Both the position numbers and the translations under genes were made by a program. Under the pieces are notes generated by a model. It did not search any database and had not been told where the DNA came from. It was given only the letters and a program-made list of their open reading frames with translations. Positions 5,653 to 31,010 of a stretch of 64,000 nt of DNA are shown here, piece by piece (positions within the stretch are counted from its first letter, which is position 1; each line of letters begins with the position of its first letter). Source of the DNA: Pseudovirgaria hyperparasitica. Its lineage: Eukaryota. The DNA lies in assembly GCA_010093815.1 (NCBI GenBank), contig ML996575.1. The stretch is one strand, 5' to 3'.

Positions 5653-6299
5653 CGTGTAGTACAATGAATGTTGCGAAGAGATTTGGAGAAATCATTAATA
5701 GTTTATATTATAGTAAAAATTCAAATATTATAATTATATTCAGAGACACGAGTGAGCGATTTTTCTATCTCTCTAGACCAGTAAGACTTAGAAGTAGACA
5801 TTCTGAGTTATAGCATGTCCTATAAATAGTAGTCTGAATATAAGCCTCCGCGTTTCATTTTTTAGTGTATATTCTAGGAATATCCCTGTAGATGAGTCTT
5901 CGCTGGATCGCACGCGTCACGGGTAAGTACCACTAATAGCTAAGCTTTGGATTCCACTATAAGAATCGGCATATATAGTCACGTCTAGATTAGAGGGATA
6001 TATGATATTCTAGTTACACTATTGACCAGGGTCTACTTATACCGTTCTAGACATCAACTCCGGTGTATACCACAAGAGCCTGGAAGAGCGCACGGGCGCA
6101 AAATTCATACTGAATGGCGGGTATTGTGACACCGTATTTACTCTGCCAAGCTTATGATGTTCTCTTATCGGCACTCGTTCAATTTATAATCACACATGCG
6201 ATCACTTCGTCAATGAGATGAGTAGACAATAATTCCTGAATCATTTCCGTCATCGGACCATCCTTATGTATAAGAGCAATCGAGGTTATCTACAGTGGT

Positions 6300-7851
6300 T
6301 CAATGTCGTCTCGTCCTGATGTGTCCGATCCAATCACTCTGCAAGGTCCGATACATCCACTGTGCAAATCTGACGGCTGGCTCATCGATGAACTTTGTTC
6401 CCAGCTCCGCAGCCCACAGAGTTGACGGCAATAGTATGACTTGGCACGCCAGGAAGTTGATCTCCAACCCCAGAGGCCCTGCGTTTGACAGTGGATATCG
6501 GTTGTACCAGCCTGGAAATTCGACATCATCTTGCCCGGCCTTGCCAAAACCCGTCGCGACATAAAGGCGCATGGCGATCGTCGTCAAGATGGCACCGTGT
6601 AGGAGATAGAGGGCATACGATATTCGACCAAGATACTGGCAGAAGTTTGATTCGAAGAACGATTTGAGGACGCTTATGCGCGGAATGCACATCACGATTA
6701 ACGTCGATGCGAAAAAGAGCGGCCACCTATTCTCATCAGTGTCACCCATTCACAAGCAGATAACATACTTAGACTCACCACTTTGCATCGCTCATCGCTG
6801 CTGGCCTGGTGTCAATAACCCAGCTCCACCCGGGACTCTTATTCCAGTAGAACATGTCAAAGGAGTTGCTCGGCGCGCCTGCAAGCAACAACCCAAGCAC
6901 AAACAATGTGCAAAACAACTTCTTCTTGTGTTTTCCCAATTTCCTAAACATCGGTGGCAAGTCGTCCGCCGCAGCATGCAGATCCATCTCTGCCAACGCC
7001 ATACCCGCGACAAAATACGCATTGCTCCACCCATCTACCATCCACAGAAAGTAGCATATCATTGCCGCATATACGCACCAACGACTCGAGCGCGTAAAGT
7101 TGCTCGTACTTAGCGCGAGGATATACACCACTATAGACCCCTTAAGCTCAATCGGAATGCTCCACGTATGCATATTGTACGTGAGCCACGGCGGATCCGC
7201 AGTGCGCCATAGATAACTCCACTGTCTAAAGTCCGTCCAGAAGTCCCTGACTTGACCCCAATACGAGTCCACGTTCTTCGCCATGACACCCTTGACGCCC
7301 GTGACATGGAGGCCAGTGAAATAGACCACCGTCGTGCCCACAATCGGCAGATAGAGTCGCAGCCAGCGCCGAAACAACGCACTAGCCAGATTGTCGCCCA
7401 GACGCTCTTTTTCACCGCTGAGAATATATGTAAGCGGCTTCTGTGTCAACACGTACCCCGAAATCACATAGAAGCACGCCACTGCAACATGCCCACCACA
7501 GAAGAGGATTCTGACGATGGGTAGAATCGCGAAGTAGTGATTGTCGTCGTACCCCCACGCATTTTCGAATACGGCAGCTAGATTCTTGACACTGTCGTCG
7601 TGGTGCGCCCATAGCTCATGGTGCTGGATATAGACGAGCAAGGCGGCGAAGCCGCGCAGACCGTCGAGGTATGCGGTTGGGCGCAGGGTGGAAGGGCGAT
7701 AGAGGTGTGAGGACAGGAAAGAGGGTCTGGCAGCGCGGAGAATGGATGATAGTCCTGTGACAATCCGGAGTGTGATGCTGGCCGAAGAGGGCGCGTTGCT
7801 GTGGAAGATGGACTCCTGAGAGAGAGGGTTATGTTTTTCTTCATCGTCCAT
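6300..7851 (-). CDS. Acyltransferase-3 family membrane O-acyltransferase (hard-surface-induced protein 3-like); 1 intron
   Basis: 'TAYLDGLRGFAALLV', 'FRRWLRLYLP', 'HTWSIPIELKGS' and 'YLGRISYALYLLHG'. ORFs 6775-7851 and 6300-6749 are joined by a gtgagt...ag intron near 6727-6778. Confidence 0.9.
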
Positions 7852-13700: not shown

Positions 13701-14608
13701 TCATAAGACCCTTATAGAATTTTACCTATATTACTTTAGATCTATAGTAGTCGTATAAGAAGAGGTTATTCCCTTTTACTCTTAAACTATACCCTTAATT
13801 CCTAATATATAACTAGGAGAAAAGGCGTATAGAATTTAGTTACTTACTAAAGAGGATATTAGTAAGTTTAACCTTTTTCATAGAACCGTCTAAGAGAATA
13901 TAATCTAGGAAAACTATTCTAATACCATTAATAGGAATCTTCTAATAATTTATAATTAATATATTACTAGAGGTACGCGGTTCTAGTAAGGTAAAGTCAT
14001 CTATATAACCCGATATATATCGTGATACACCTAAATTAAAGATCTAGTTATATATATCTACGGTTATATTAGAATTTGTAAGGAGTCTAATAGCTTTAAT
14101 ACCTAGGTCTAAAAATATTACTAAAATAAGAGGCTAACTTACTACTCGAGATCGCTTACCGTTTATATTAGCTATAGTCGTAAAGAAACTAACGACGTTA
14201 TTATTAGAGTTAGATTTAGAATCTAAAATTTTAATAACTTTAGCCTTATTAGCCTTTTATTACTTACTTAAGGAGTCCTTTTTAGAGGAAGACTTAGAAG
14301 ACTTCTTATCTAACTTATTATCTTCTTTAGAGGCTTTAAGTTTACGATAGTCTTAATACTTATAACCTTTAGAAGAAAAGCCGCGTTTCTTATACTATAT
14401 ATATTTAGTATTAGAGGTAGAGGTGGAGGTAGAGGCGGAGTTAGACTTCTTTAACTTAGAAGGTATAAGAATTATAGACGTAGGATAGTAGTCTAACAGG
14501 TCATAGAAGAATTCGGGAATATATTTAAAAGGGTAGTCTACTCTTCTAACGAGGTTAATTCCTAAAGAGTAGGAATTAAGTGTATACGGCCTACTTATAT
14601 AGTGGTCT

Positions 14609-14747
14609 TGTAAGGAGGCGGGCTCCACGCACTAACTAACTATACTAAAGGACCGAATCTTAAAGCTACTGCTTCAAGGGTGGAGTACACTGCTTATATA
14701 CGACTACTGCACACATGTATAATCAACTGGCAGGCACGTGCCTAACA
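14609..14747. mobile_element. 139-bp solo LTR or TRIM-like insertion inside the 3' LTR of element B
   Basis: Termini TGTAAGG...CCTAACA and TSD GGTCT (14604-14608, 14748-14752). Absent from the sister LTR at 29768-30007. Confidence 0.88.
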
Positions 14748-15827
14748 GGTCTCGCTTATTCTAGCTAGCTTAACCTAGGTCCACCTATTACAGACTATAC
14801 TAGACCATAGTAGTCTAGTTAAGTCTATCCTAGTATTAGCCCTAATAATATCCTTCTTCTTTTTATGCTTCGCCCTAAAGTACTTAGCTATATATAAATC
14901 CATAATTCTATAAGCATTATATTTATACGCGTATCTAATTAAATCCATATAATATTATCAATAGTCTTTATATTAGTAAACTTAAGCTCTAGTTTACTTT
15001 TATTTATATACGCGCTTATCCCTTACTTTATAGCTACTACCTTAGAGATAGCTCCGCGGGTTATATAACCGCTATATTAACTAAGCTTATATTTAGTTCT
15101 CTTATTCTAAATTTTCTTCTCTAGTATATCTACCTTACTCTTAAGGTAAGTTATTAATTTATATACTATCTCCTTTAGTTTAGATCCGTTTAGGTCTAGA
15201 GTAGTCTATTTTTATTAGAGCTGGTCCTATATAATCTATTTATGTTATTATAGTTACTAATTTAGCTTCTTTAATCGCCTTTAAGACTAAACGAGTATTC
15301 TACTCTTAGATCTCTAGCTAACGTATATATATAGATATCTAATACTAGTCCTATTCCTAAGCCTACCTCCTCCTCTTATAAGACTTACTCTAAAGAGATT
15401 ACCTCTACCCCGGCTATACCGGCTAAAAAATCTACTTATTATAGTAGTATAAAGGCGCGCTCTAAGTTAGAGAAGAAGGTAGCTAAGGCTACTACTACTA
15501 TTACTACTAACGTAGCCACTAGTCGCTCTAATCTAGGTAATCCTAGTACTAGTATTGCGGAAGAGGTGGCTATAAAGCCTATCTATACCTACTCGCGCCG
15601 CCTATCTACTCTACCTCCTTTAGAGGATAAAGAAGATCTTATTATAGATAATAATTAAGAGTTCACGCCTTTACCGCCTCGCTCTAAATACTATTTCTCT
15701 TTTCGGTCTAATATAGACCGACTTAGTTACTCTAGGTTCTTTTAGGACCTTAATATTTACTCTAAACCCAGCCCTAGTAATAATAAGGCCTAGGTCGCCG
15801 AAGATACTAAACGTAGTCGTGGTTTAC

Positions 15828-18800
15828 TATTAGGACTTAGCCTTAGGCAGGACCTAACCTACACGTACCTTAGCTAACAGGGTTAGGAGGTGACGTGAAG
15901 GGCGGTAAATAGTCACGTACTAGATAGATCGGCGTCCCTTTATATATATACTCTCGGATTCCTACTAAAAGGGTTCGGTAGTAATTCGTTCTATAATAGA
16001 ATACACCCTATTATTCTATCTAACTACACTACTATCTAATAACCCTATTCTTATATTCGAATTACTCCCTATATAGTACTATAGTTAAGATAGTCTAACT
16101 AGAACCGAGAAGGTCGACACGATCTACTATAGGGATAAGTAATACTACATTAAATAATAGGGATCCTCTATAATCGGTATTAATCCCGGCCGTTTCTAAC
16201 TAAGAAGTAGAAATGTTAGACCGAATTACGGAGCTTTCAGACGAAGAAATAGTAGATACGCCGAGTAACTTCTAATAATATAAAGCCGGATAACGAGTCG
16301 TGGCGGAGCCACGTAAGGTGTTATAATAAACCATCGCCGAACTTTAGGAATCCGTCGCGAATTAGGCTCGAGAGATTTAAACCCTTAAAGAATAGGTAGA
16401 ACGCGCGAAACTCCTCGTAAAGAGACGAGAACTTAAGGAGTCTCTTAAAGAACTACGCTAAACGATAGTAGGTGGACGACTTCCTATACTAATTTAGGCG
16501 GAATTAGTTTACCTACCATTAGAGTTACGATAATCCACCGTATACCCGGCCGCTTCGTTACCGATTTACTCTACTTCTTCTCTAGGTATACCGAAACCTA
16601 AAGACCCGACTATATTTATAGGGAAGAACTAAAAGGAGTGGAAAGACTAGAAGAGAGACTACGAAAAGTACTTCCTCGATAACCCTCTACTCTTTTCTAT
16701 TAAAGTATAATATATTTCGTTCGGAGAACGATACCTAGACTTATAATCCCGCGATTAATAGGATAGATAGAAGGAAGTATAGCTACTATCTACGATAACC
16801 TAGGAACATTTAGCTATATTTATACTAAACACCCTCGGAATGGATAGAGAACATAAAAGAAAGGCACTATCTAAGTTAAGAAGCGTGGTATAACGACCGA
16901 ACTAGACACCTACTTAACTACTATAATACCTCTAAAACCTATAGGATAATATCCCTACGCTATAGGAAAATATTCATATATTCTAGTTTCGCGAAGTACT
17001 ACTTCCGTTAATCCGCGAAAGACTAGAAATAGTATTATTAAGTTTTAACTATCTACACGAATTAGAGGAGAAAGCTAATAAACACTACCGCATCCTTAAG
17101 AAATGCGGCTCTCTAGGTAAAACCGACGAACCCTATACGGGTTAGAAACGAGGTCGATTAAATACGTTTAATTAAGAGTAACCTTACCGCGATTAGCGCT
17201 AGAAGAGCGTAAATCGGGGTAGAAACGCGTTAAGAGGACACTAAAATAATCGAGGCGGTGCTTCTTAACGCGGAAAAGGATAAGGTATAGGCTTAAATAT
17301 AACGCCTATCGTAAAATAGTAGGATTATAGCGTACTTCGTTACTATAAGTATAAAGAAATAGGATATATTTCGCCTAACTATAAGAATCTAAAAAAAGAA
17401 TAGGCTAGTACACGAGACCTAACCGTATCCTTAGCTAAATTATATATACTTAGGAGGAGCCGTAGCGCCTTCCGGCGAGTAAAGACCTAATATTACTAAA
17501 AGTATCGTTACCTATAGTAAATAGTAATAAAACTATATAGGCCCTTATAGACACTAGTATAGAAGATAACTATATTTTATCGATTCTCGTAAAGGAGTAT
17601 AGATTATTATACGATCTCGGTAAAGTTAGCCGAACTATTATAGTTAATAGATATAAAGTTAGAACTTTAGGTAAAGCTATAACGAATTACGAAGTTCATG
17701 ACTCGAAGATAATAAAATAGTAGATATCTAATAAATTCATCGTGGCTAATATTAGCTAATAGAATATGATTCTAGGGATGCCTTAGCTTAGACGCCTAAA
17801 CTCCATCCTTAATTTTTAGAAGGAGACATTAACGTTCCGATAATACCATGGTAAATTATACTAGTAGGTCGTAACTATTAGTAAGGAGGCATGGAACCTC
17901 GCTATACGGACCCGATCGTCGCTAATCTATCTTACGTCCTTATTAATCATTAATAAAGATAAGGACGATAGTAATAATTAGGGCGAAGACACGCTACCTA
18001 ACGTATATTCGTAGTATACGGATGTGTTTTCGGTAGGAGATGCGTTACTTCTCCCTAATCACGGGCTGTATAAGCTAAAGATCGAGCTCGAAGAGGGAGT
18101 AGACGTCCCTTATAGCCTACTTTACCTACTTTTAAGACTAGAACTCGAAGTTCTTTATAAATATATTAAAGAATACCTTAAAAGAGGCTAGATACGTCGT
18201 AGTATGTTATTAGCTAGCGTACCTATTCTCTTTGTAAAGAAGAAAGACGGAAGTTTACGTCTATACGTTAACTATTAGGTACTAAATACGGTAACTAAGA
18301 AGAATCGTTACCTATTACCGCTAGTTAGTGAATCTTTAGACTAATTAACGAAGGTAAAGTACTTTACGAAGCTAGATTTATAAGATATATATTACCGGCT
18401 TCGAATTCGTCGCGGAGATGAGTGGAAAACCGCATTTCGGACTAGATATAGTTATTTTAAGTATACTATTATGCCATTCGGGCTAATAAATGCGCTAGGA
18501 GCGTTTTAAGGATATATTAATACTATACTCGTAGGATTACTTAACGTAATTTACGTAGTTTATCTTAATAATATACTAATTTACTCCGATAGCATGTAGG
18601 ATTATAAAGAACACGTGAAATCGGTACTAAATCGTCTAAGGTAGTATAAACTCTACGTAAAATTATCTAAATGCGAGTTTCACTAATAAGAAGTTAGGTT
18701 TCTCGGCTTTATTATAACACATAGCGGCCTAAAAATGGAGCCGGAGCGTGTAAAGACCATCATGGAATAGCTAGAATCTACTACTATACGTTAAATTAGA

Positions 18801-21800
18801 ACATTCATAGGTTTCGTGAACTATTATCGTAAATTCATTATAGGCTTCTTATAAATTACGGCGCCGCTTAATAAACTCATAGAGAATGGCGGTAAAATCT
18901 CTATAGGTAGGCGAGCATAGCGTAAAGCTAAGTCGGTCGAGATATAGTTAACGCTAAAAGCGCGAGATGCGTTCCGATCATTAAAGAATTACTTTATAAC
19001 TACGCCGATTCTTAGGTATTTTAATCCCGAGAAGTATATTCGGGTCGAAACTAACGCGTTAGGATTTATAATTACTAGAATTATTAGTTAACCGTATAAA
19101 GATATAAAAGATAAGGTGTAATAGTACCCGGTCGCTTTCTTTTCCCGTAAAATAGCGGATATAGAGACGCGTTATAACACGCATGACTAGGAACTACTTA
19201 TAATCGTCAAGAGTTTTAAGTAATAGCGACATTATTTAGAAGGCTCCGTATATTAGATTAAATTATTATCGGATCACGTAAATCTATATTACTTTATATT
19301 AACTAAGGTCCTTAATCACCGATAAGTACGTTAGGCTAAGTAGATGTTAATATTTAACTTTAAAATCTTATATAAAGCTAGAAGAGAGAATAAAGCTAAT
19401 CCTCTATCGCGGTATAAAGATTATAAGAAATCGTTATAGAATGACGTAGATAGTCGGTGTAAGTTAGACTATACTATACTTTAGATACTATAAGACTAGT
19501 TATCTAATAGAATACTAGAAGCTAGAATACTTTCGGCGATTCTCCGCGGGAATTAGAGCGGGTATTAAGTAATCTAAATAAACGTCTAAGAAACTAAGAA
19601 AACCCTCAAAGACTTAATTAAATCTACCTAGAATTCCGATACATTAGTAAAGAAAGTTATAAGCATGAAAGGAAGCGCTATAGATCCGCCGTGGTTATTA
19701 AGGTAGAAACAACGATCGGACACGATCTACTTCTAAGGCCGACTCTACGTGCTAGAAGGCGGCTTATAAATTAATATTTTAAGGGAATAGCACGATTACG
19801 CGTTAGTAGGGTACTTTAGCGTTATAAGGACGGTCGATTTAATCCGAAGGACATACGACTAGCTAGGTCTTTATAAATATATAAAAGACTACGTAAAAAC
19901 GTATAACGTTTACTAGTATACGAAAGTATATAGACACTTGCCATATAGTAAATTAAGGCTATTACCTATGCTAAAGGAGGCATGGAAGGAATTATTAATG
20001 GATTTCATTATAGATCTACCCCTAAGTAAGTGTTCTAGATATATTTATAATAGTTTACTTATAGTTCTAGATAGATTTACGAAGATATTATACTACATCC
20101 CTATAAGGAAGATAATCTAAGCACCGGATCTTATAGATATACTACTCCGTGACGTAGTCCGGCTCTACGGTATACCGAACGGTATAGTTTCGGATAGAGG
20201 TCCATAGATAACGTCTAAATTTTAGAAGGATTTCTACTATACGCTAGGAATCAAGCGGAAACTTAGTACTATATTCTATCTATAAATAGATAGGTAGACG
20301 GAGTAGTAGAATTAGATAGTCGAGGCGTGTTTACGCGCATATTATAACTATAAGTAGGATAACTAGGTAAGGTTAGTCTATATTACGGAATTCGTATATA
20401 ATAATAGCCGACATGCGTTAACCTACGTAAGTCTATTCGAAGTAAACTTCGGTTAGAACCATAATACGTAGTTCTTAGGGACTTAGTTTAAAGTAGAACG
20501 ACCTAACATTAAAGTAATAGAAATTACTATAGAACTATTCTAAACGTAAAGAAGCGTTATAAAGTTACTATAAGATGCTATAAATTATAGCAAATTATAC
20601 TATAATAAGGGTAGAAAACCCATGATCTTTAATGTTAGGGATAAAGTTTTACTAAATAGTAAGAATATTCGTAGTATTAGGCTAAAGAAGAAGCTTAACT
20701 ATACGATGATAGGTCTATATAAGATTACTTATATAATTAATAACCAGGCGTACGAGTTATAACTCCCTCCTACGTTAAAGATATATAATATATTCTATAT
20801 TACGCTTCTTAAGCCATTTCATGCCTTATTATTACCGGATCGTTCCGAATAGATACTATATAAAGTAGTTACGTAAGAAGGTATAGATATCTATAAAGTT
20901 AAGTAGATACTTAGCTAGTAACACGCCGAAGATAGCACGTGGCTATATAAAATTCGTTAGAAAGGATATAATCCTAACGGAGATACTTGGGAACCTATAA
21001 TAAACATTAGTAAAGTAGCGATATTAGTATATAAGCAGCGATTAGTAAAGGAAGCCGCGGAATCGTAGAGAATTATACCAAAGTACGGTAATTCAATATT
21101 TTTTAGTATAGTTTAGCGCCGAGGACGGCCGCCTAAAAGGAAGAAGGTAAAAGAGATATAGATCTTTAAAATATTCTAAGGAATTAAGGAACTTCCTTAG
21201 AAAGTTCGAACTTAGAACTTTAAAAAATTTAACTAAAAAAGAGACTTAGAAAAATGATTTACTAAGAGAAATGGACATCGAAAATCGGTGCTAATCGGTA
21301 TAGATCGGTATAGATTACTAAAGAGATTAAAGAAGTTATTATTAAAGAAAGATAAAATTAAGAAAGCTAAAAGAAAATATAAAGATCTATATAGATCTAT
21401 ATAAACTTACACTAATCTATCTAGAAGAAGTAAGATTACTTTAAAATTAAAACCGAAAAACTAAAAACGCTAGATAAAAGAGATATATTAGTACCGATTA
21501 GTATAGATCTAAACTAATTAAGTCGGAGTAGGAGTAGAAGTACTAATTACCGCGATGGTTACATCTAATTTCTTCCGCTAGTTCTTATTTAGCATAGTAT
21601 AGAGCTTTATAATATAAGTCTCTAGCCTTTCGTTCCGACGCTGTAAATTCTATATAGCGCGCCTTATAGCTATAAACTCCTCTATAGAAACCTATAGAGC
21701 GGCGGGACCCGGGATAGAGAGGGACGGACCGGCGCGGGCACGCTAAGAATTATATAAATTAGCGAAAAGATTTAACGATCGGTATAGAACCATATACCTT

Positions 21801-23211
21801 TAGTATAGAAACTTCTAGATTAGAGCCATCTTCCCTAAATTTATAGCTCTTTAGCATGCGCGAGGAAGGAACCTTAGCCTTTTTACTAGAACCTTTTCTA
21901 GGAATTTTAATATCACTAGTATATAGAAAGAGGTCCGAAGTAGTAGAGATTTTAGCACTATTATAGAGATTAATATATATTAGTAAGAATCTATAATAAT
22001 TTAAGAAAAACGATATTATCTAGTAATCGCGGTAATAATAGCTATAGTAGATTCCGATAAATCCTTATAGATCTTATTAGAATCGTACTCCTAGGCGTAA
22101 CCCTTACCTTAGGTATATAGCTCGTAGAAAGCCTTCTCTAAGGCGTTGCGATCGGTAGTACTACGCTCCTTATTAGTAGGGGTCACTAGAGGCCTAGTAG
22201 TAATCTATACTAATATAAGTAAATCTACGTAAAGTTCTTTAAACTTACTTAAATACCTATAAGTAATAACGCTTCTTAGTTATATAAGTGCCGTATATTA
22301 TAGATTTAGTACTACCGTGAGTAATATACGACGGAAAGCGATAACCATAATAATATATAGCTAGATTATTAGAGCCCGGCCTAGGTCGGGGTAGATTAAT
22401 AGCTTTCGATATATCGGTAACGTATACGAGATAGGGATTATTCGAAGGCGCCTATTTCCGCGCCGATTACTTTAGAGCGTCGAGATTTCGGGAAACCATA
22501 TTATAATTATTATTAATTTATGCGGATTATTATAAATTATATTATTACTAGCTAAGGACGGCACGAAAATTAGTAAATTGCGTAAATCGCACTAAATTAT
22601 AGTAAATCTATATAAATCTATATCTATAAGGATCGGGTGATATACCTAATAATCTAAAAAACTCTATAAAGAGTTGAGAAGTTTTTTAAAGAAAGGAATA
22701 TTTCTAAGAAAAGATTTTAATATAGGTAGTACCCGGGCTTACCTAATTATATCACGTAATACGCTAGGCCTAATTAGGTAATCTCACCTATATAAGAAGT
22801 TAAGATGGATAAAATCTAGTTTATTAGGAAAACGCTTGTATAAATCTTAGATCGGCGAATATTAGTAAGTATCTAAGACGAAGCGTGGAGAACGACTAAG
22901 GTCTTATAAGACTTAGGATAGGGATATAGAGATAGGTAACGATCTAGATCGCTAAGGGTAGCTTCCTAGAGGGAAGGGATAATTATTAGGACTTAGCCTT
23001 AGGTAGGACCCGACCTATACGTACCTTAGCTAATAGGGTTAGGAGGTAACGTGAAGGGCGGTAAATAGTTACGTACTAGATAGATTAGCGTCCCTTTATA
23101 TATATACTCTCGGATTCCTACTAAAAGGGTTCGGTAGTAATTTATTCTATGATAGAATACACCCCATTGTTCTATCTAACTACACTACTATCCAATAACC
23201 CTATTCTTATA
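15828..23211 (+). mobile_element. Ty3/Gypsy chromovirus (element C), RIP-inactivated; 7.4 kb, inserted in the accessory gene of B
   Basis: 228-bp LTRs at 15828-16055 and 22984-23211; TSD TTTAC at 15823-15827 and 23212-23216; PPT GAGGGAAGGGA. Gag zinc knuckle at ~17341, RT '[12 protein letters not shown]' and 'VYLNNILIY', RNase H 'VETNA', integrase 'WKELLMDFIIDLP', chromodomain 'WLYKIR*KGYNPNGDTWEP'. Confidence 0.93.
21518..22499 (-). pseudogene. Antisense accessory gene of Gypsy C, about 4 exons; putative Cys6-type motif and C-terminal coiled coil
   Basis: ATG at 22499: MVSRNLDALK*SARK*APSNNPYLVY...PSY...IIYGTYITKKRYYL* then an intron. Later exons are separated by gt...ctaat...tag introns. 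The last exon reads 'EEFIAIRRAI*NLQRRNERLETY'. Confidence 0.65.
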
Positions 23212-26200
23212 TTTACGCTATAGAAAAACGGCGAACTACGGTTTAATATACTTTAAGTATATTAAGGCTTACGCCACCGGCTCTAAATATCTCTTCCGCT
23301 CTAACTCTAGTATTAGCTACTACTCTACTAACTACGACGGGCCTATACACCTAATCTTTAAGCTCCCTACCCGCTACTACCGCTATACCGTTCTTAGTAA
23401 AGTTTATCTTTAGATAAGTCTATTAGGCTATTTTAGTCTAGGGTAATCTAAAGTCGTCTATACTAATACGTTTTTAGATTTCTATTTATATATAAGATAT
23501 ATATAACGATCTTTACGTCCGCGAGACTCTCGGTAGTTCTAGCGGTTACCTAGCTTCTATACGTAGGGAGTTTAGGGAGCGCTATAAGCTCTTTCTAGAG
23601 GTTATTAAAGTATAAGTTTAGAAACCATTAATTATTATTAACCTTAGCTTATAATTTTTAGTTACCGCGAGATTTCTAGCGCTTAGGCTACCTATTCTAG
23701 GGAGTCGGTTTTAGCTACTAAGGCCGTAGAAGAGATTTATACTATTCCTTCCTACCCGCCTTATACTACTAACGGGTCTTATAAGAGATCTTCTAGTTCT
23801 CCTTCTAAGTTACCTCGTAAGAGGGTATATATTCTATTCTAGATTATTCTAGACCGCGTTAGCTAACTTTAGGTCTAGTCGCTCCGCTCTAGCGCTTAGT
23901 CATCGTCTTACTAGGCTCTAACTAAGCGCGTGGTTACTCTAGAGGATAAGGTCTCTAACCTCCGTCGCTCTATTACTTAGTTAGTTTATTTACTACGCTC
24001 TAAGAGTAATAATAAGATAGAGGAGTAGCTCTATGGCTCTATTTACTAGGGTTTCTATATAGTGTGTGTTAGCTCTATCTACCTAGTTTCTATCCGTTTT
24101 AGTCCTTTTTAGACTATTTAGATATCTATCTACTAGTTTTCTAGTAATTTAATTCTTAACTTAATAATATTATGTACGTTCTTATTTATTCTATAACTAT
24201 TAAATTTTAGGTTCTAATTTCCTTTAAGTTACTTAAGTATAGGTATTATATATAAATTAGTTTATCTCTCTAAATTATATTAGAGTACCCGAACTAGTAG
24301 CCTAGTAGTTATTAGTTCGGGTACTCTAACCTTTTATATTATATATTACGAGTTTAATTCCGTAGTAGGGTACCTTTTTAGTTTCTTAGTCCTATATTCT
24401 TCTTGTGTATAATAGTCTATATTAGTCTATTCTAGACTTCTCTATATTATTCTATTATAATATATCGCGTCGCGTGCCTATAATGGTTATTTACGTTTTC
24501 TTCGCGTTTAGTAACCGTATATCGCTTAAATTATGGGGCTGCCTTATAGAGTTTTCCTAGTATATGTTTAGGATTCGTGATTCGATACTTCGTTCTCTAT
24601 AGTATCCTTCTTCTTTTTATAATAGCCCCGACGGCGCTAGGTTTACGGTAGTAACGTATTATTCTATAACCTCTATTTATATATAGCTATCGCGGTACTT
24701 AAGATATATACCATAGGTTCCTAGGTGTTCTTATCCTCGGTATAGTTCTTCTAACGGATTTAATACTTTTAGATACCGTTCTCGTCGAGTCTATATTTAA
24801 TAATATAGTCTACTTCGTACACGTCTAGTCTATCTTAGAGTATAATAGAGTGTAATTACACGTTCGTGCGTTTATATATATTAGATCGAAACCTTTTAAG
24901 TAATAAGACGTGGAATACGTTATAGACTTTTATATTATTTTCTAGGTTAAGCTCGTAGACTCTTATACCGATATAACGTTTAATTCGGAAGAGACTAGCT
25001 ATTTTATAATCGAGCTTTTTATTTACTCGCGACGTTTATATATTACGGATATTAAGAAGGACTTCGTCTCCCTTCTCGTACGCTTAATCTTTAACTAATC
25101 TATTATAGTACTTTATATATAACTTATTCGCTTACTAGATTATTACGCGATAGTTACGTATGGTTTTAAAGATTTTAATTACTAGTTCCTACGTGTAGAC
25201 GTTAATATCTATCGTTCGGTCGAACTAGACCGTATAAGGTTTAAAACCTATCCTTAGACTACGTCCTAGGTTCGCCTAGAAGGGCGTGACACCTATTATA
25301 CTATAACGACTATTATTATACGCGAATTCTACTATGCTTAGTAGAGAGGCCTAGTTATCTTATTCGAAATTATAGAATGCACAAAGGTAGGCCTCGAGCG
25401 TTTAGTTCTATTACTCTATCTAACCATCTATTTATAGATAGAATACTATTAATATGTTTCTATTCATACCGGCTATTTCGTAGAATAATATCTAGAATTT
25501 AGACGTAAATATACTCCCTCGGTCCGTAACGATCCTTTTTAGTATACTATAGACCTTAATAATCTTATTCTAGAATACTTATACTAGTTCTTTTAATATA
25601 ATCGTCTTCTATATAGGGACGTACCTAGATATCTTTATAAGTCTATCTACGATAATAAGAATTAAATTATAACTTATCCTAAGTATCTCGCTTAGAGGTA
25701 AGTTAACTATAAAATCTATAGTAATATCTTCCTATATAAAGAGGGGGACTAGTAGAGGCTATAAGTTCCTATATAGCTTATGCCTAGGTACCTTTATTCT
25801 TTAATAAATCGGATAAGTAGCTATCTATTCTTCGACGTACTTAGGTATATCTTTCTAAAAATAGTACTAATAAATCGAGCTTAGGGTGCGTATATACCCG
25901 AAATATTCTACTAGGTTAGCGTTATGGTATTAGCTAACTACGGTAAATTATACGTTACCCGTCGGTATATAGTACTTTCTATTATAGTAGAGTAAGCCGT
26001 CCACGAAGGTCTACTTATAGTCTACTTTAGTCCGTAATAATCTATCTTACTATATTTTATATAACTTTAAAACTATTAGGTCTATCTTTTATAGATCCAC
26101 GATTAACTAGGCGAGGTCTACTTAATATATATACCGGGTACTATCGCCCTCCCTAATAGCGCCGATAAATAGCTCGCTAGGGACTTCGGTACCGCGTCTT

Positions 26201-29200
26201 TAGTTACCGGCTTCGGTCTTATAAATTTAATTACTAGTATTAGTATTAGTATCTCGCTAATTATCGGATAACTTATTATCTAACCTTATCCTCAAGAGTT
26301 AGGCCTATAGCTACTCTAGGACCCTATAGCTACTATAATCCTAGGCGCCTTCTTTATAGTTAGGTCTTCTTAATATTCTATTAGCTAGGTTTATACTTCT
26401 AGGTTAATAGTAGATTATAAAGTAGAAATTTATAAGCTACTTAGCCTATTAAACCTATTAACGATTTAAAACCGTTATACTTATAAACCCCTTTAAGTTA
26501 TAGTAATTAGTTAGTAACTTAACGTTATATATAGTACCTTTAAGATAATATCGCTACTACTTAAATAACTCTACTATTACTAGTAGCTCTTAGTTATAAA
26601 TAGTATATCTAGTCTCGACGTCGGCTATCTTACGCGAGAAGAACGTAACTAGATACTATTAGACCTTTTTAGACTCTATTAGTCTAGGCTAGAAGAGTAT
26701 ACCCGAGATTATAAATCCTAATATATTAGTTTTAACGTGAATAGGTTTAGTTAGATCGAAGTACACTAGTAATAGAGCGGTTATAAATACTTCTTTAATC
26801 TTCTTAAAGGATATTCTTTTAACCTTAGTTAATTTAATAGATTATAATTTAATATTACGCTATTTCTATCTACCACGGACTATAATAGACGAGTTAGTAG
26901 TAGTAGTACGCGTATTAAGTAGTGCGGCTAAACAGGAGAAGTATTTAATAAATTTTCGGTAGTAGTTAGCGAAGCTAATAAAGACACGTATATCTCGAAC
27001 GGATTTTAGTTTAGGCTAGTCTATAATAGTAGTAACTCTATCTCTCTCTATGGTTATACCTTAATTAGTAATAACGAAGCTAAGAAAGTTAATATAGTTC
27101 TAATGGAACTCGTATTTAGATAGCTTAATATATAGCTTATACTTTTCTAGTCTATCTAGGACTATACGTACGTACTAGATATACTCATCCTCGTTATCTA
27201 AGAAGATAAGGATATTATCTAGGTATACGATATATATCGTGTTAAGTAGATCTACTAGCGCGTTATTAATATATACTTAGAAGGTACCTAGCGCGTTAGT
27301 TAGTCTAAAAGGGACTACGGTATACTTAAAGTATCTATAACGGGTCCTAAAAGCCGTTTTCTATTCGTCGCCTTCCTTAATACGAAGGCGATAGTAGGCG
27401 TTATATAGATTAAGCTTAGTAAAGATCTTTACGCGTCCTAGTCTATTAATAGACTTAGAGATAAGAGGTAGTAGGTAACGATTCTTTCGTGTAATATTAT
27501 TTAGACTATAGTAGTTAATATATAGACGGAGGCTTCTATCCTTCTTCTTTATAAAGAGAATTAGAGCTCCGGCTAGGGATATACTAGGCCTAATCTATTC
27601 TCGCGTAAGGTTCTTTTCGATATATTCTTAAAGGGCTTATAACTTAGGTTCTAAAAGAGGGTAGATAGATCTATATAGAGGTTACTAGCCGTCTTCGAGA
27701 TTAATAGTAACGTCGGTAGATTAGTATTAAGGTAGTTCGGAGGAATCAATCGCTAACGCAATATATTAGTATATTTTATACTAATATAGTAGGTTTTCAT
27801 CTACTTTAATACTAAGCTCGCTATTTTACGTAAGTAAGAGTATATAGATAGTAGAGATCGCCTTCTCGTAATCTTTCTAGAATTATTCGTCGTTAATAAG
27901 CTATACTAGTTCCTATTAAGGTAGGTTTATACGCTAGCTAGCTATCTTCTTAAGGAAGTCTAGTTTTAGATTATATTTCTTAAGCTATAGTATACCTAGA
28001 ATTATATTAAAGGGACTATCTACCACGATAAAGGTTAAGTAGTAGAGTTTCTATTTCCCTCCGCTATTCTAGATACTATATTTAATAGTATAGATACTAT
28101 ATAACTTAATAGGACTATCGATACTATAGAATATAGCACCTATTAGAGCTTAGATATCGGCGTTAAGTTCTCGTGCTCGTTAGGTCGATATAACGTTAGT
28201 AGCCAACCTACTATTAAGTATTATAGTCTAATATTATCCACGAGGGACCTCGATAGGTCTAGTCTATAGTTTAATATACTATTTAGCGGATTACTCTTCT
28301 ATTATAGTCGCGCCTATAAGTTACGAGGGTTTCTTATAGACTATTAGTTTTTTATATTCTATACTAGATAGTTAGGCGCGATATATCCTAGCTACTAGCA
28401 CTTATAGTATATAACTAGTTAGTTAGTTATATTAGTACTCGGTAGCTTTCCCGAACGGTACTTAGATACTATATAGTCTATTCTACTATAGGTATAGTAA
28501 GTAACTTTAGATCGTTTATACGAGTCGGTCCTTATATCTTAATATATTAATTAGTAGGGAGATCTATAATACGATCCGCGTGGTTTTAAATTTAAGGCGT
28601 GGTAGTAGCCTTATAACGTCCCGCGAGATCTATTACTAAATTAGTTTTAGTTAGACGATTTTACGTTAGATTAGATTATTAGGGATAGTCGTATACTAGC
28701 GCGGCGTTAATTATTTATTATATACTAGTATCGCTCCGTAAGGTTTATAAGAGCTTAGAGGTCTATAGGGATTATTATTATAAGGTTAAGACGGTCCTTT
28801 ATATTTAGGGCGAGGGACCGTTTAAAGTTATCGTACTATTAAATTATATAATCTTCTTCGGCTTCTCTCTAGAGGGGCCGAAGGTATTTAAGGAGTTATA
28901 ATAGTAACTAATTATCTCGTTATCGAGTCTTAAAGATATAGCCCTAGGCCTAGTCGCGTTATTCAGCCCTATTACTAAAATATTAGAGAAGAAATTCGGT
29001 AAACGTGTCCTAGTTATAGGTATCCTTAGGATGTTCGATTTAGTATACTATCTAACGTTCTAAAGGCGTCGGGTTAAGGTAGTTCTAGGCGAATCTAATT
29101 TTATTACTATCGTTCGTGAATAGATAGAAGAATCGGCTATATTAGTAAGTCTATATATAGAAACTCTTTCTACTTTTACTATTAAAGTAAGGTAGTTTCT

Positions 29201-31010
29201 TAGGTTAGGGTAATTAGAATAGTAGTAGACTAGGATAGATTATTTTAGTTAGTATAGGTCTATATAAATATAGATTAGTTATTACTAGAACTAAAGCGCG
29301 TAATATAGCTTTAAGTCTTATAGTACGTTCTTAAGCTTCGTTAAGTTTACATAGTTATTACTTAAGTTAAACCTATTATTACCTCTCTTCGTATAGTCTA
29401 GTATATATATTATTATAAGGTATAGTTAACGTTAGGCGATTCTAACGGATTAACTCGTTAATATTAATAAGGTCTAGCCTCGTGTTAAGGTTAGGTCTAG
29501 TATAGTTCGAACTAGACTAAGATGGAGTATAATAGACTCTATCCTTATATTCTATAATATCTTCTATAGTTATACGGAATATCGTGCGAGTTATTAGTAC
29601 GATAGTCTATAAGGTATAGTTATTAGTAGGGGTAGTTATAGGTAGACTATTCTCCTCGTTTAGGTTAGGAGAAGGTCTACTATAAGAGATGGTGCTACGA
29701 GTATTATAACGAGTAGTTAGAGCTATTTCTATAAACTACCGTCGTGCTATATAAAGAGGAATTAAAATATAAGGATTATAGACGTAGGATAGTAGTCTAA
29801 TAGGTCATAGAAGGATTTAGGAATATATTTAAAAGGGTAGTCTACTCTTCTAATAAGGTTAATTTCTAAAGAGTAGGAATTAAGTATATACGGCCTACTT
29901 ATATAGTGGTCTCGCTTATTCTAGCTGGCTTAACCTAGGTCCACCTGTCACGGACCGTACTAGACCATAGTGGTCTAGTTAAGTCCATCCTAGTATTAGC
30001 CCTAATAGAAGGCTAACCGGACTTACCCTTATAGCTTACCTTATAGCTAGTAGTATTAGATTTAATACTATATTTCTTAGCTAGATTAAGTATCTTTAGC
30101 TCGATATCTTAAAATCGTAATATATCTCGAGTTAATAAATTATTAATAATATAGTCTATGGTATTAGGCAATAAGATAAGGAAGAATAAGCCCTTAACCT
30201 CTTTAGACTTAAAGATTAGGCGTATTACTTTTATAACTATATAAGATAAAGTAGTATATCTTTTTACTATTCGCATCTAGGTATAATAGAAATTATTAAT
30301 ATATTCATAGATATCTTCTCCGTCTTTATAGCGGAGGTTAGCGAGTAATCTAAATAGATATATTAAAGAATTACCTATATCACGGTCGAAACGTAATAAT
30401 AGGTAACTCTATATAGCTACTACTATATTATAGGAAGTAAGACCTATAATAAGATCTTAATATATTAATAAGAGTAATATAATTATTACCTTATTATCCT
30501 TTATATCCTAATCTATTACATCTATATATAAATCTATAACTCTAGTACTAAAGGGTCTAATAACTCTACTAGAGACTATTATCTATAATTATATATATTT
30601 AAATACGATTATCTAAGCTAATCTCTACTTAGGGAAATTTTCTTCTCTTAAAGATAGCTTAGATAGAGAGGATAGGTCGAGTTTAAAGTTAATAGATATA
30701 TTTATTATTAATAAGTTCCTTAAGTTCCTTCTCTTTTCTTTATATAGGACTAATAGTTTCTTATTCTAACTCTTTCTATTTATTATATATTCGTAAGGAA
30801 GGTAGTAAAGGTAAAAGAGATAGAAGGATAGTATAGAGGACGATATAGAGGCCGAGAGTTAATAAGGTAGTAGAATTAAAGTAAAACTTTAATAGGATTA
30901 ATAAGATAACTAAGTTTTAGAGAAGGGACTTACTTTTATTAAAATATAATAGTTTTCATTAATAAAGAGGTATTTTAAGGCTTTTATAGTAAAACGCCGG
31001 GCTTATAACC

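Follow-up and report, generated by a model that had tools for sequence, protein, structure and literature searches.

A stretch of 64,000 nucleotides of the genome of Pseudovirgaria hyperparasitica (contig ML996575.1, GenBank assembly GCA_010093815.1; hereafter the window, to which positions refer unless a locus is named) contains a Ty3/gypsy chromovirus, element B, which occupies 14464-30007 on the minus strand and has been mutated by repeat-induced point mutation (RIP). The family of element B probably carries a third gene, antisense to the element and located between pol and the polypurine tract, of which B retains a fossil. That an antisense gene is real in the clade of B is shown by a related metagenome element, locus L001, in which the gene is intact; in B and in element C, a second chromovirus inserted into the gene of B, it is fossilised. 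Since B is on the minus strand, the plus strand from 14867 to about 24600, between pol and the polypurine tract, is antisense to it. An earlier reading of this DNA made without database searches (hereafter the sequence-only reading) had placed the gene there, and the minus-strand pol and the plus-strand frame described below agree with that placement. The coordinates of all features are listed in Table 1.

Rejoined antisense frame of element B

Upon removal of element C and one copy of its target-site duplication, TTTAC, the segments 15335-15827 and 23217-23413 are joined into a single plus-strand frame (...RSRGL/RYRKTANYG...VYL-stop), in agreement with the sequence-only reading. This frame consists of 229 codons with three internal stops and is followed by TAG; the stops in the six frames of the rejoined stretch number 3, 11, 42, 9, 22 and 50. 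None of 2000 dinucleotide-preserving shuffles contained any frame with three or fewer stops (minimum, seven), and none of 1902 frames from the same mutated block (317 windows, six frames each) reached three, the minimum again being seven, in real pol genes. The density of stops is 1.3% in the rejoined frame as compared with 6.5-7% in the true pol frames. These counts against shuffles and block windows indicate that the frame is not due to chance. The plus strand is rich in pyrimidines here (15001-16000: GC skew -0.13, AT skew -0.09), which lowers the number of stops generally, but an origin of the frame in the skewed composition of RIP-mutated DNA is barely credible, since the shuffles never reached three stops in any frame and the distribution of 3, 11 and 42 stops among the plus-strand frames represents a period-three signal.

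The frame starts with ATA at 15335, straight after an in-frame TAG at 15332-15334. This ATA could be a mutated ATG; Met is absent throughout the frame, as expected where TpG becomes TpA. The AT-rich block that surrounds the frame (about 10.5-31.2 kb; GC near 0.3, against near 0.48 in the flanks) has RIP indices of 1.5-2.9 for TA/AT and 0.05-0.28 for (CA+TG)/(AC+GT), and the frame itself 2.4-2.9 and 0.08-0.11, as compared with 0.82 and 1.2 in the flanks.

A periodic Markov coding model trained on three mutated pol genes, of which the results are weak and serve as support only (the true frame was picked in 51 of 92 and 44 of 89 held-out windows), ranked the frame best in 13 of 14 windows starting at 15298-15688 and in the first two windows from 23217. 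As a point against the antisense gene, the minus-strand frame in register with it is also rather open, with nine stops in 229 codons, fewer than in most non-coding frames, and the same minus register is favoured by the coding model in 14848-15237 beside the polypurine tract. The former gene might then have been a sense-strand third open reading frame (ORF3) after pol, codon for codon opposite the plus frame. Such an ORF3 is highly improbable, however: the plus frame has three times fewer stops and scores higher in the coding model in the windows starting at 15298-15598 and in the first two from 23217, splice-like sites follow the open segments on the plus strand only, and the gene of L001 is antisense. 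The minus-strand frame at 14850-15205, adjacent to the polypurine tract, has five stops in about 119 codons and is favoured by the coding model; it may be a shadow of the plus register or a small sense-strand remnant, and is not significant alone.

Contigs from four public sequencing runs (X1 and X2 of the same organism, X3 and X4 of a second sample) were compared with the locus. In three X1 contigs and three X2 contigs, 15822 is followed directly by 23212, so that 7389 bases are missing, and five letters at the joint could belong to either side; the joint is absent from the contigs of X3 and X4. The joined contigs represent copies of B without C, and since they bridge the insertion site inside the frame, the frame is probably present in other copies of B as well. 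X1 and X2 contigs with at least 80% likeness leave no bin empty in the spacer that separates pol from the 3' long terminal repeat (LTR), the depth of these contigs not being equal to copy number. The contigs also point to a very large number of B-family and C-family copies in the organism. At 23514-23515 the window has TA and nearly all other B-family contigs have CG (55,519 of 55,747 depth units in X1); the change of TA to CG converts a Tyr codon into Arg within exon 2 of the gene model described below.

Exon-end motif and gene model of B

The rejoined frame ends in Y-x2-Y-x6-Y-L-stop, directly followed by ATAAGT, and its last 65 residues contain 20% Tyr as compared with 8-9% in the pol frames. 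The first open stretch of the antisense frame of C ends in the same pattern, followed by GTATTT. When all six frames of the mutated block were scanned (40,608 codon positions), Y..Y.{6}YL-stop (dots standing for any residue) was found at two positions, exactly the ends of exon 1 in B and in C. The Tyr spacing common to both elements, already pointed out in the sequence-only reading, is better read as a mutated Cys motif. In the same DNA the integrase motif C-x2-C-Q reads Y-x2-Y-stop in both B and C, and the CCHC knuckle of C gag reads Y-x2-Y-x4-Y-x4-Y, indicating that Cys and His codons have turned into Tyr, and Gln codons into stops. The Tyr residues of the exon-end motif would likewise be RIP-mutated Cys (TGY to TAY) and its stop a mutated Gln; the Cys reading was recorded before L001 was found. 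A count of 32-residue windows rich in Tyr, Cys and His gave 12 loci, including wrong frames, with the B motif just under the threshold, and was not decisive.

The intron claimed to lie right after the motif has all its elements, ATAAGT, TACTAAT and TAG, in place (Table 1). The single intron of that claim was not sufficient: the model requires three, and the claimed protein ending, ...ALTKRVVTLEDKVSNLRRSIT-stop, exists with its stop at 23978-23980 but is reached only via two further introns that had not been listed. Introns 1 and 2 were placed on the basis of splice-like hexamers at the ends of open stretches and of the phases leading into the most open frames, both before L001 was found. The whole model of 1095 nt comprises 365 codons with nine internal stops, all TAA or TAG, as compared with 17 and 61 stops in the alternative two frames of the same pieces, and its intron phases, 0, 2 and 0, are those of L001. 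The gene of B would accordingly have been spliced at three introns. A minimum-stop path test with frame switches proved powerless, known pol regions scoring as shuffles.

Intact antisense gene of locus L001

A total of 79 related metagenome loci were fetched with an alignment of the pol proteins of B and C, and no unmutated relative closer than L001 was found; in its best segment L001 is 44% identical to the pol query (E 8e-104), and it scored best among the loci with a long spacer. It is free of RIP mutation (GC 0.49) and has an intact gag of 420 amino acids, an intact pol of 1342 amino acids and a spacer of 2050 bp. Between pol and the 3' LTR it contains an antisense gene running from ATG at 6844 to a stop at 5902 (positions of L001), which has four exons and codes for 266 amino acids once introns are removed. 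Exon 1 ends CESCTGATNCLE/GTAGGT, that is, C-x2-C-x5-C-L-E/GT, and its Cys spacing is C-x2-C-x14-C-x22-C-x2-C-x5-C. The predicted introns of 44, 47 and 51 nt (GTAGGT...ACTGAC...TAG, GTATGT...ACTGAC...CAG and GTACGT...TACTAAT...TAG) have phases 0, 2 and 0. The intron pattern occurs nowhere on the plus strand of L001 and four times on the minus strand, three of the four being the introns of the model; the background in unmutated loci is one per 14.5 kb. The last exon is heptad-like in B, C and L001, and exon 3 of B and L001 closes with, or shortly after, a basic cluster.

A relaxed motif, [CY]-x2-[CY]-x5-6-[CY]-[LIVM]-[EQK or stop] plus a splice-like hexamer, had a single occurrence among 1,761,460 codon positions of the 79 loci, where it closes exon 1 of L001; this count overstates the surprise, since the pattern was loosened after L001 had been seen, which counts against it, but the place, the strand and the exon boundary are still as predicted.

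A protein atlas search with L001 exon 1 gave unnamed clusters of 179 and 211 residues with a best score of 0.77, which is a lead only. The 179-residue cluster (52 members) has the same length as the unspliced L001 ORF from its ATG (6308-6844, minus strand); this ORF was absent from a protein collection on exact look-up.

Antisense remnant of element C

The antisense gene claimed for C in a setting like that of B was also recovered. The antisense strand of C at 21590-22500 is more open than shuffles (P 0.003-0.010), and shares with B the end motif of exon 1 with an intron-like site directly after it. Phase 0 applies to both intron 1 (22256-22205) and intron 3 (21797-21743, GTATAT...CTAAT...TAG) of C, while for intron 2 the 3' site points to phase 2.

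Clade, spacer length and duplicated polypurine tract

The spacer was surveyed in the 48 of 79 loci in which the pol match reached at least query residue 762; in 33 of these the match was enclosed by a pair of LTRs. Among the 33, pol ended 55-544 bp from the 3' LTR in 20, 892-1246 bp in two and at least 1.9 kb in 11; spacers above 3 kb may contain nested insertions. A tree of the reverse transcriptase (RT)-RNase H region was constructed with FastTree from the 71 of 81 rows with 300 or more aligned residues; the L001 query served as anchor of the alignment, and the tree was rooted at the midpoint. B and C were sisters, and together with L001 belonged to a clade of 14 with support of 0.967. Spacers of at least 1.9 kb were present in eight of the nine measured members of this clade, as compared with four of 25 measured elements outside. 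The spacer of B, about 2.3-2.4 kb, is the longest among the uninterrupted ones of the clade.

Five loci (L005, L007, L038, L061 and L010) represent one family with RIP-like mutation, the copies differing by 538 transition and 63 transversion columns. In the L005/L007 family the spacer is about 2.0-2.1 kb as in C, and no gene was readable on either strand, the five copies sharing stops in every frame. The spacer of L061 has an insertion of about 6 kb relative to L007.

The polypurine tract of B has a second, identical copy at the end of pol (Table 1). Likewise, 13 bases at 5660-5672 in the pol tail of L001 are repeated at 7580-7592 beside its 3' LTR, and in both B and L001 the antisense module sits between the two copies. 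The duplicated tract, together with the 20 short-spacer relatives in which the LTR lies close to the end of pol, makes the module resemble an insertion between an ancestral polypurine tract and U3, and the module would thus have entered there with duplication of the tract. C has a B-like purine run after pol (about 21135-21158) and a different tract beside its own LTR.

The two identical tracts that bracket the spacer of B, resembling an insertion scar, would also suit foreign DNA that landed once in the ancestor of this copy, such as a transduced fragment of a host gene or what is left of a different mobile element, in which case the frame would be no gene of the B family. The 79 related loci yielded no homolog of the frame, and the great length of the B spacer points the same way. 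Such an origin is very improbable, since the X1 and X2 contigs cover all spacer bins, six of them bridge the site of C inside the frame, L001 has the same bracketed layout with an intact gene, no repeats of the kind that mark a nested element flank the frame and Pfam detected no transposon domain in any spacer frame.

Evidence on common descent

A number of observations weigh against the antisense gene, or against its being shared by B, C and L001. Within the model of B, intron 3 came to light only by comparison with L001, intron 1 begins with a G-to-A change in the GpG context disfavoured by RIP, and the stop counts of exons 2-4 are like those of shuffles (P 0.6-0.7), a test that fails also on known pol. 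For intron 2 of C no recognisable 5' site was found. One clade member, L072, has a spacer of just 146 bp, and the RIP-mutated, AT-rich rows of the tree, several of them in the clade and B and C included, may attract each other.

Similarity searches between the elements were negative. BLOSUM local alignment of 72 frame pairs of B and C gave no outlier (best 69, mean 42.9, standard deviation 9.3), the frame pair of the sequence-only reading being outside the top 15. By alignment of RIP-invariant purine/pyrimidine codon classes, the antisense pieces gave z of -1.6 to +0.9 in 12 comparisons; in the control with the same method, pol gave z = 50, and eight of 14 pol chunks of 66 codons gave z above 7. 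Homology between the proteins of B and C, the lack of which the sequence-only reading had named as grounds for rejection, was not detected by either method. By tblastn, eight antisense pieces of B and C against the 79 loci gave a best E of 0.8, and the ORFs of L001 against the window a best E of 0.36, outside B and C. RIP-aware profiles, in which codons were allowed their pre-RIP residues, gave z of -1.7 to +1.2 against L001, and the Cys segment alone p of 0.18-0.83. As claimed earlier, no nucleotide similarity was found between the spacers or between the LTRs of B and C, and no further copies of either spacer were found within the window. AlphaFold2 models made without an alignment had a predicted local distance difference test (pLDDT) score of 52.8 for 65 residues of B and 44.5 for 64 residues of C, too poor for fold comparison.

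Database searches with the frames of B gave no relatives either, which is weak evidence since B is heavily mutated. Word-based protein searches with 15335-15814, 23207-24028 and 15335-15826 found none, and an exhaustive phmmer search of 1.84 billion representatives with the 274-residue read-through gave no hits, the query containing misframed exon 2 and intron translations. Pfam was silent on the antisense frames of both B and C, sequence searches of PDB with the B frames gave none or E 0.5, and the protein atlas had no usable match to the 65 residues of B.

As to the nature of the Cys-rich segment, a Zn2Cys6 domain was rejected, as its spacing does not fit B, C or L001 and Pfam is silent. No Pfam family, curated zinc-binding profiles (fungal Zn2Cys6, CCHC knuckle and others) included, matched L001 exon 1 at E up to 1 or the B and C frames. 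No Pfam domain was found in the exons of L001, and a bZIP (HBZ-like) profile did not match L001 exon 4 or B exons 3 and 4. L001 exon 1 against PDB gave RecA chains with no stretch passing on its own, a result judged not credible.

The antisense ORFs of B, C and L001 could thus be unrelated, arising by separate captures or de novo in a permissive spacer, with the shared motif and phases due to coincidence or convergence. For no pair does an alignment statistic show a link, though the pol proteins of B and C are 42% identical over 975 residues. The part before the motif is longer in B (about 195 residues) than in C (48) or L001 (45), the motif spacing is x6 in B and C and x5 in L001, and the L005/L007 family has an equally long spacer with no clear open frame on either strand. 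Independent origins are nevertheless considered unlikely: the motif with its splice site occurs nowhere else in 1.76 million codon positions of the loci or 40,608 of the block, the phases 0, 2 and 0 agree between B and L001 with two of the three fixed before L001 was seen, both genes have a basic cluster at or near the end of exon 3 (eight residues before it in L001) and a heptad-patterned protein end, and the long spacer maps to one clade. Since no alignment statistic links the three genes, the case for homology is one of architecture, which suggests that the antisense genes of B, C and L001 have descended from a common ancestor. The conserved third-gene module in a chromovirus lineage, as put forward in the sequence-only reading, gains from the intact gene of L001 and the long spacers of its clade, but not from any alignment score for descent.

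Organization of the window

Three LTR pairs are nested in the window, C within B within A. Element A, the outermost (10545-31170), is a Ty1/copia element on the minus strand (Pfam: RVT_2, 1e-33; SH3_retrovirus, 4e-10), into which B was inserted with the target duplication GAAGG. For Pfam scans of the mutated pol frames, stops were read as X. The pol of B was recognized in one minus-strand frame (RVT_1, 1.6e-18; RT_RNaseH_2, 1.8e-13; RT_RNaseH, 3.6e-09; SH3_Tf2-1, 4e-09), and that of C in one plus-strand frame with the same Pfam domains plus the integrase zinc domain, the integrase core and a weak chromodomain. The 42% identity of the two pol proteins extends to a common end point. Pfam missed the integrase core of B, although this region aligns with the integrase of C. 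The Pfam Chromo domain was detected in C only, below the curated cut-off (E 0.0036, 17.6 bits as compared with 25.1), and the end of B aligns to that stretch of C.

The LTR beside the polypurine tract at 14849-14866 is, by this position, the 3' LTR of B. It contains an extra, less AT-rich segment of 139 bases (14609-14747) that is lacking in the 5' LTR; contigs of X3 and X4 match this segment with eight differences and then continue into unlike sequence, so that it resembles a small independent repeat that has entered the LTR. The LTR pair of C was given by program as 15821-16057 and 22977-23213. Its target-site duplication TTTAC is at 15823-15827 and 23212-23216, and the element begins with TA and finishes with TA, which fits mutated TG...CA. 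The perfect inverted repeat at 24280-24329 lies about 300 bases past the model of the antisense gene and is intact amid heavy mutation.

Table 1. Positions of the features of element B, its putative antisense gene and the inserted element C in the window
Feature	Position	Strand	Remarks
Target-site duplication of B, GAAGG	14459..14463 (left), 30008-30012 (right)		Same five bases flank both B LTRs
B 3' LTR	14464..14847	-	94% and 92% identity to 29768-30007 in two blocks
B polypurine tract, 18 bases	14849..14866	-	Adjoins 3' LTR; 3 matches at <=2 mismatches in the window vs 0.02 expected
Region upstream of antisense frame, presumed promoter and 5' untranslated region	14867..15334	+	Presumed from position only
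B antisense exon 1, first part	15335..15827	+	Ser/Thr/Pro/Ala/Lys-rich, 49% of first 175 residues; cut by C
Element C, Ty3/gypsy chromovirus	15828..23211	+	In exon 1 of B's antisense gene; base-by-base reading; empty-site joint in 3 + 3 contigs
C antisense coding remnant	21590..22499	-	ATG at 22499; exon 1 ends YGTYITKKRYYL-stop at 22257
C intron-like stretches	22256-22205 and 21797-21743	-	Intron 1 and intron 3
B antisense exon 1, second part	23217..23413	+	Tyr-rich (20% Tyr); end Y-x2-Y-x6-Y-L-TAG
Putative intron 1, 64 nt, phase 0	23414..23477	+	ATAAGT at 23414, TACTAAT 23461-23467, TAG 23475-23477; position and phase as L001 intron 1
Putative exon 2, 134 nt	23478..23611	+	1 in-frame stop
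Putative intron 2, 50 nt, phase 2	23612..23661	+	ATAAGT...TTAAC...TAG; phase as L001 intron 2
Putative exon 3, 163 nt	23662..23824	+	1 in-frame stop; basic cluster KLPRKR at end
Putative intron 3, 48 nt, phase 0	23825..23872	+	GTATAT...CTAAC...TAG; phase as L001 intron 3
Putative exon 4, 108 nt	23873..23980	+	3 in-frame stops; heptad-like end ...LEDKVSNLRRSIT; stop 23978-23980
Perfect 17-base inverted repeat, 16-base loop	24280..24329		Between end of antisense gene and end of pol
B gag-pol (RT, RNase H, integrase SH3-like domain, chromodomain-like end)	24560..29700	-	About 7% in-frame stops; 42% identity to C pol
Second, identical 18-base B polypurine tract	24603..24620	-	Inside Lys-rich tail at end of pol
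B 5' LTR	29768..30007	-	LTR pair with 14464-14847

Discussion

Before mutation, the antisense gene of B most likely consisted of four exons separated by three short introns (phases 0, 2 and 0) and would have coded for a protein of about 360 residues. This protein is predicted to have a disordered start rich in Ser, Thr, Pro and Lys, a Cys-rich segment closing exon 1 with C-x2-C-x6-C-L-Q, a short middle exon, a basic cluster resembling a nuclear localization signal (NLS) before intron 3, and a heptad-patterned end. The B copy is dead, being cut by the later insertion of C and carrying nine stops in 365 codons, with 5' splice sites that read ATAAGT twice and GTATAT once. Introns would be kept through reverse transcription since the genomic RNA of the element is the opposite strand, from which they are not removed; the antisense orientation may thus let an intron-bearing gene with its own promoter ride in a retroelement.

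Our best guess by analogy is that the product was a nuclear, zinc-binding, coiled-coil regulator, which may have acted in trans on the transcription or the nuclear steps of its own element, a role already suggested for such antisense genes elsewhere among retroelements. HBZ is the antisense bZIP factor of human T-cell leukaemia virus type 1 (HTLV-1), a human retrovirus; its spliced gene lies near the 3' LTR, and the protein has basic NLS clusters and a C-terminal zipper-like helix, and acts on transcription of its own element. The likeness is one of mechanism only; neither bZIP nor any other Pfam domain was found in the B frames or the L001 exons. A wider reading, which is tentative and on balance doubtful, is that a clade of ascomycete chromoviruses possesses an old, fast-evolving three-intron antisense gene, distinct from brtn of the element Boty and acquired once between the tract at the end of pol and U3, and that this gene codes for a small nuclear, Cys-rich zinc-binding, coiled-coil protein controlling expression of the element in the manner of HBZ. 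If it held clade-wide, RIP fossils such as B and C would be recognizable by Tyr-for-Cys motifs at exon ends. In RIP-mutated DNA generally, a cluster of Tyr residues may derive from Cys or His, and TAG or TAA within a frame from Gln or Trp.

Accessory genes of LTR retrotransposons are rare and almost unstudied, and the B locus together with L001 suggests that one chromovirus clade stably carries an antisense gene with introns. As the gene is dead in the window and has no present function there, its value is comparative: the motif at the end of exon 1, the phases 0, 2 and 0 and the duplicated polypurine tract provide landmarks for gene finding where RIP has erased similarity.

Antisense genes in fungal chromoviruses are already known. 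According to the parts of the sources available, brtn is an antisense gene of Boty in Botrytis and Sclerotinia, located between pol and the 3' LTR (PMC7264820, PMC8365987, PMC4227169, PMC5987419). In these parts brtn is an extra gene of chromodomain-bearing ascomycete gypsy elements, carried by a family of them rather than by a single copy; the gene of B is likened to it by place and orientation. No further fungal cases besides brtn were found in the literature searched.

In plants, as far as the available portions of the source extend, maize Grande (gene23), rice RIRE2, Silene Retand and Phaseolus PvRetro13 are described as having antisense ORFs in the interval from pol to the 3' LTR; an own promoter has been proposed for these ORFs, and the review suggests looking for spliced antisense transcripts (PMC7264820). 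The same portions mention an antisense promoter in the 3' LTR of HTLV (PMC7264820), and Tat elements of plants are described in part of another source as having antisense PMD ORFs with a coiled-coil end (PMC4408406). As described in these excerpts, the plant ORFs have the place and orientation of the gene of B, and their proteins are without clear database relatives, some being nuclear and some having a terminal coiled coil. The plant elements there are mostly non-chromoviruses (Tat/Retand) with no sequence link to B, and those excerpts report no Cys motif closing exon 1.

The closest counterpart is the gene of L001, which agrees with that of B in RT-RNase H clade, place, strand, phases 0, 2 and 0, and an exon 1 ending in C-x2-C-x5/6-C-L-[E/Q]. 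It differs in being intact with 266 residues, as compared with about 364 residues and a dead gene in B, and has no significant alignment to the frames of B or C. Relative to the known antisense genes, three features may be new: that the intron phases are conserved, that a Cys motif closes the exon and that the polypurine tract is duplicated.

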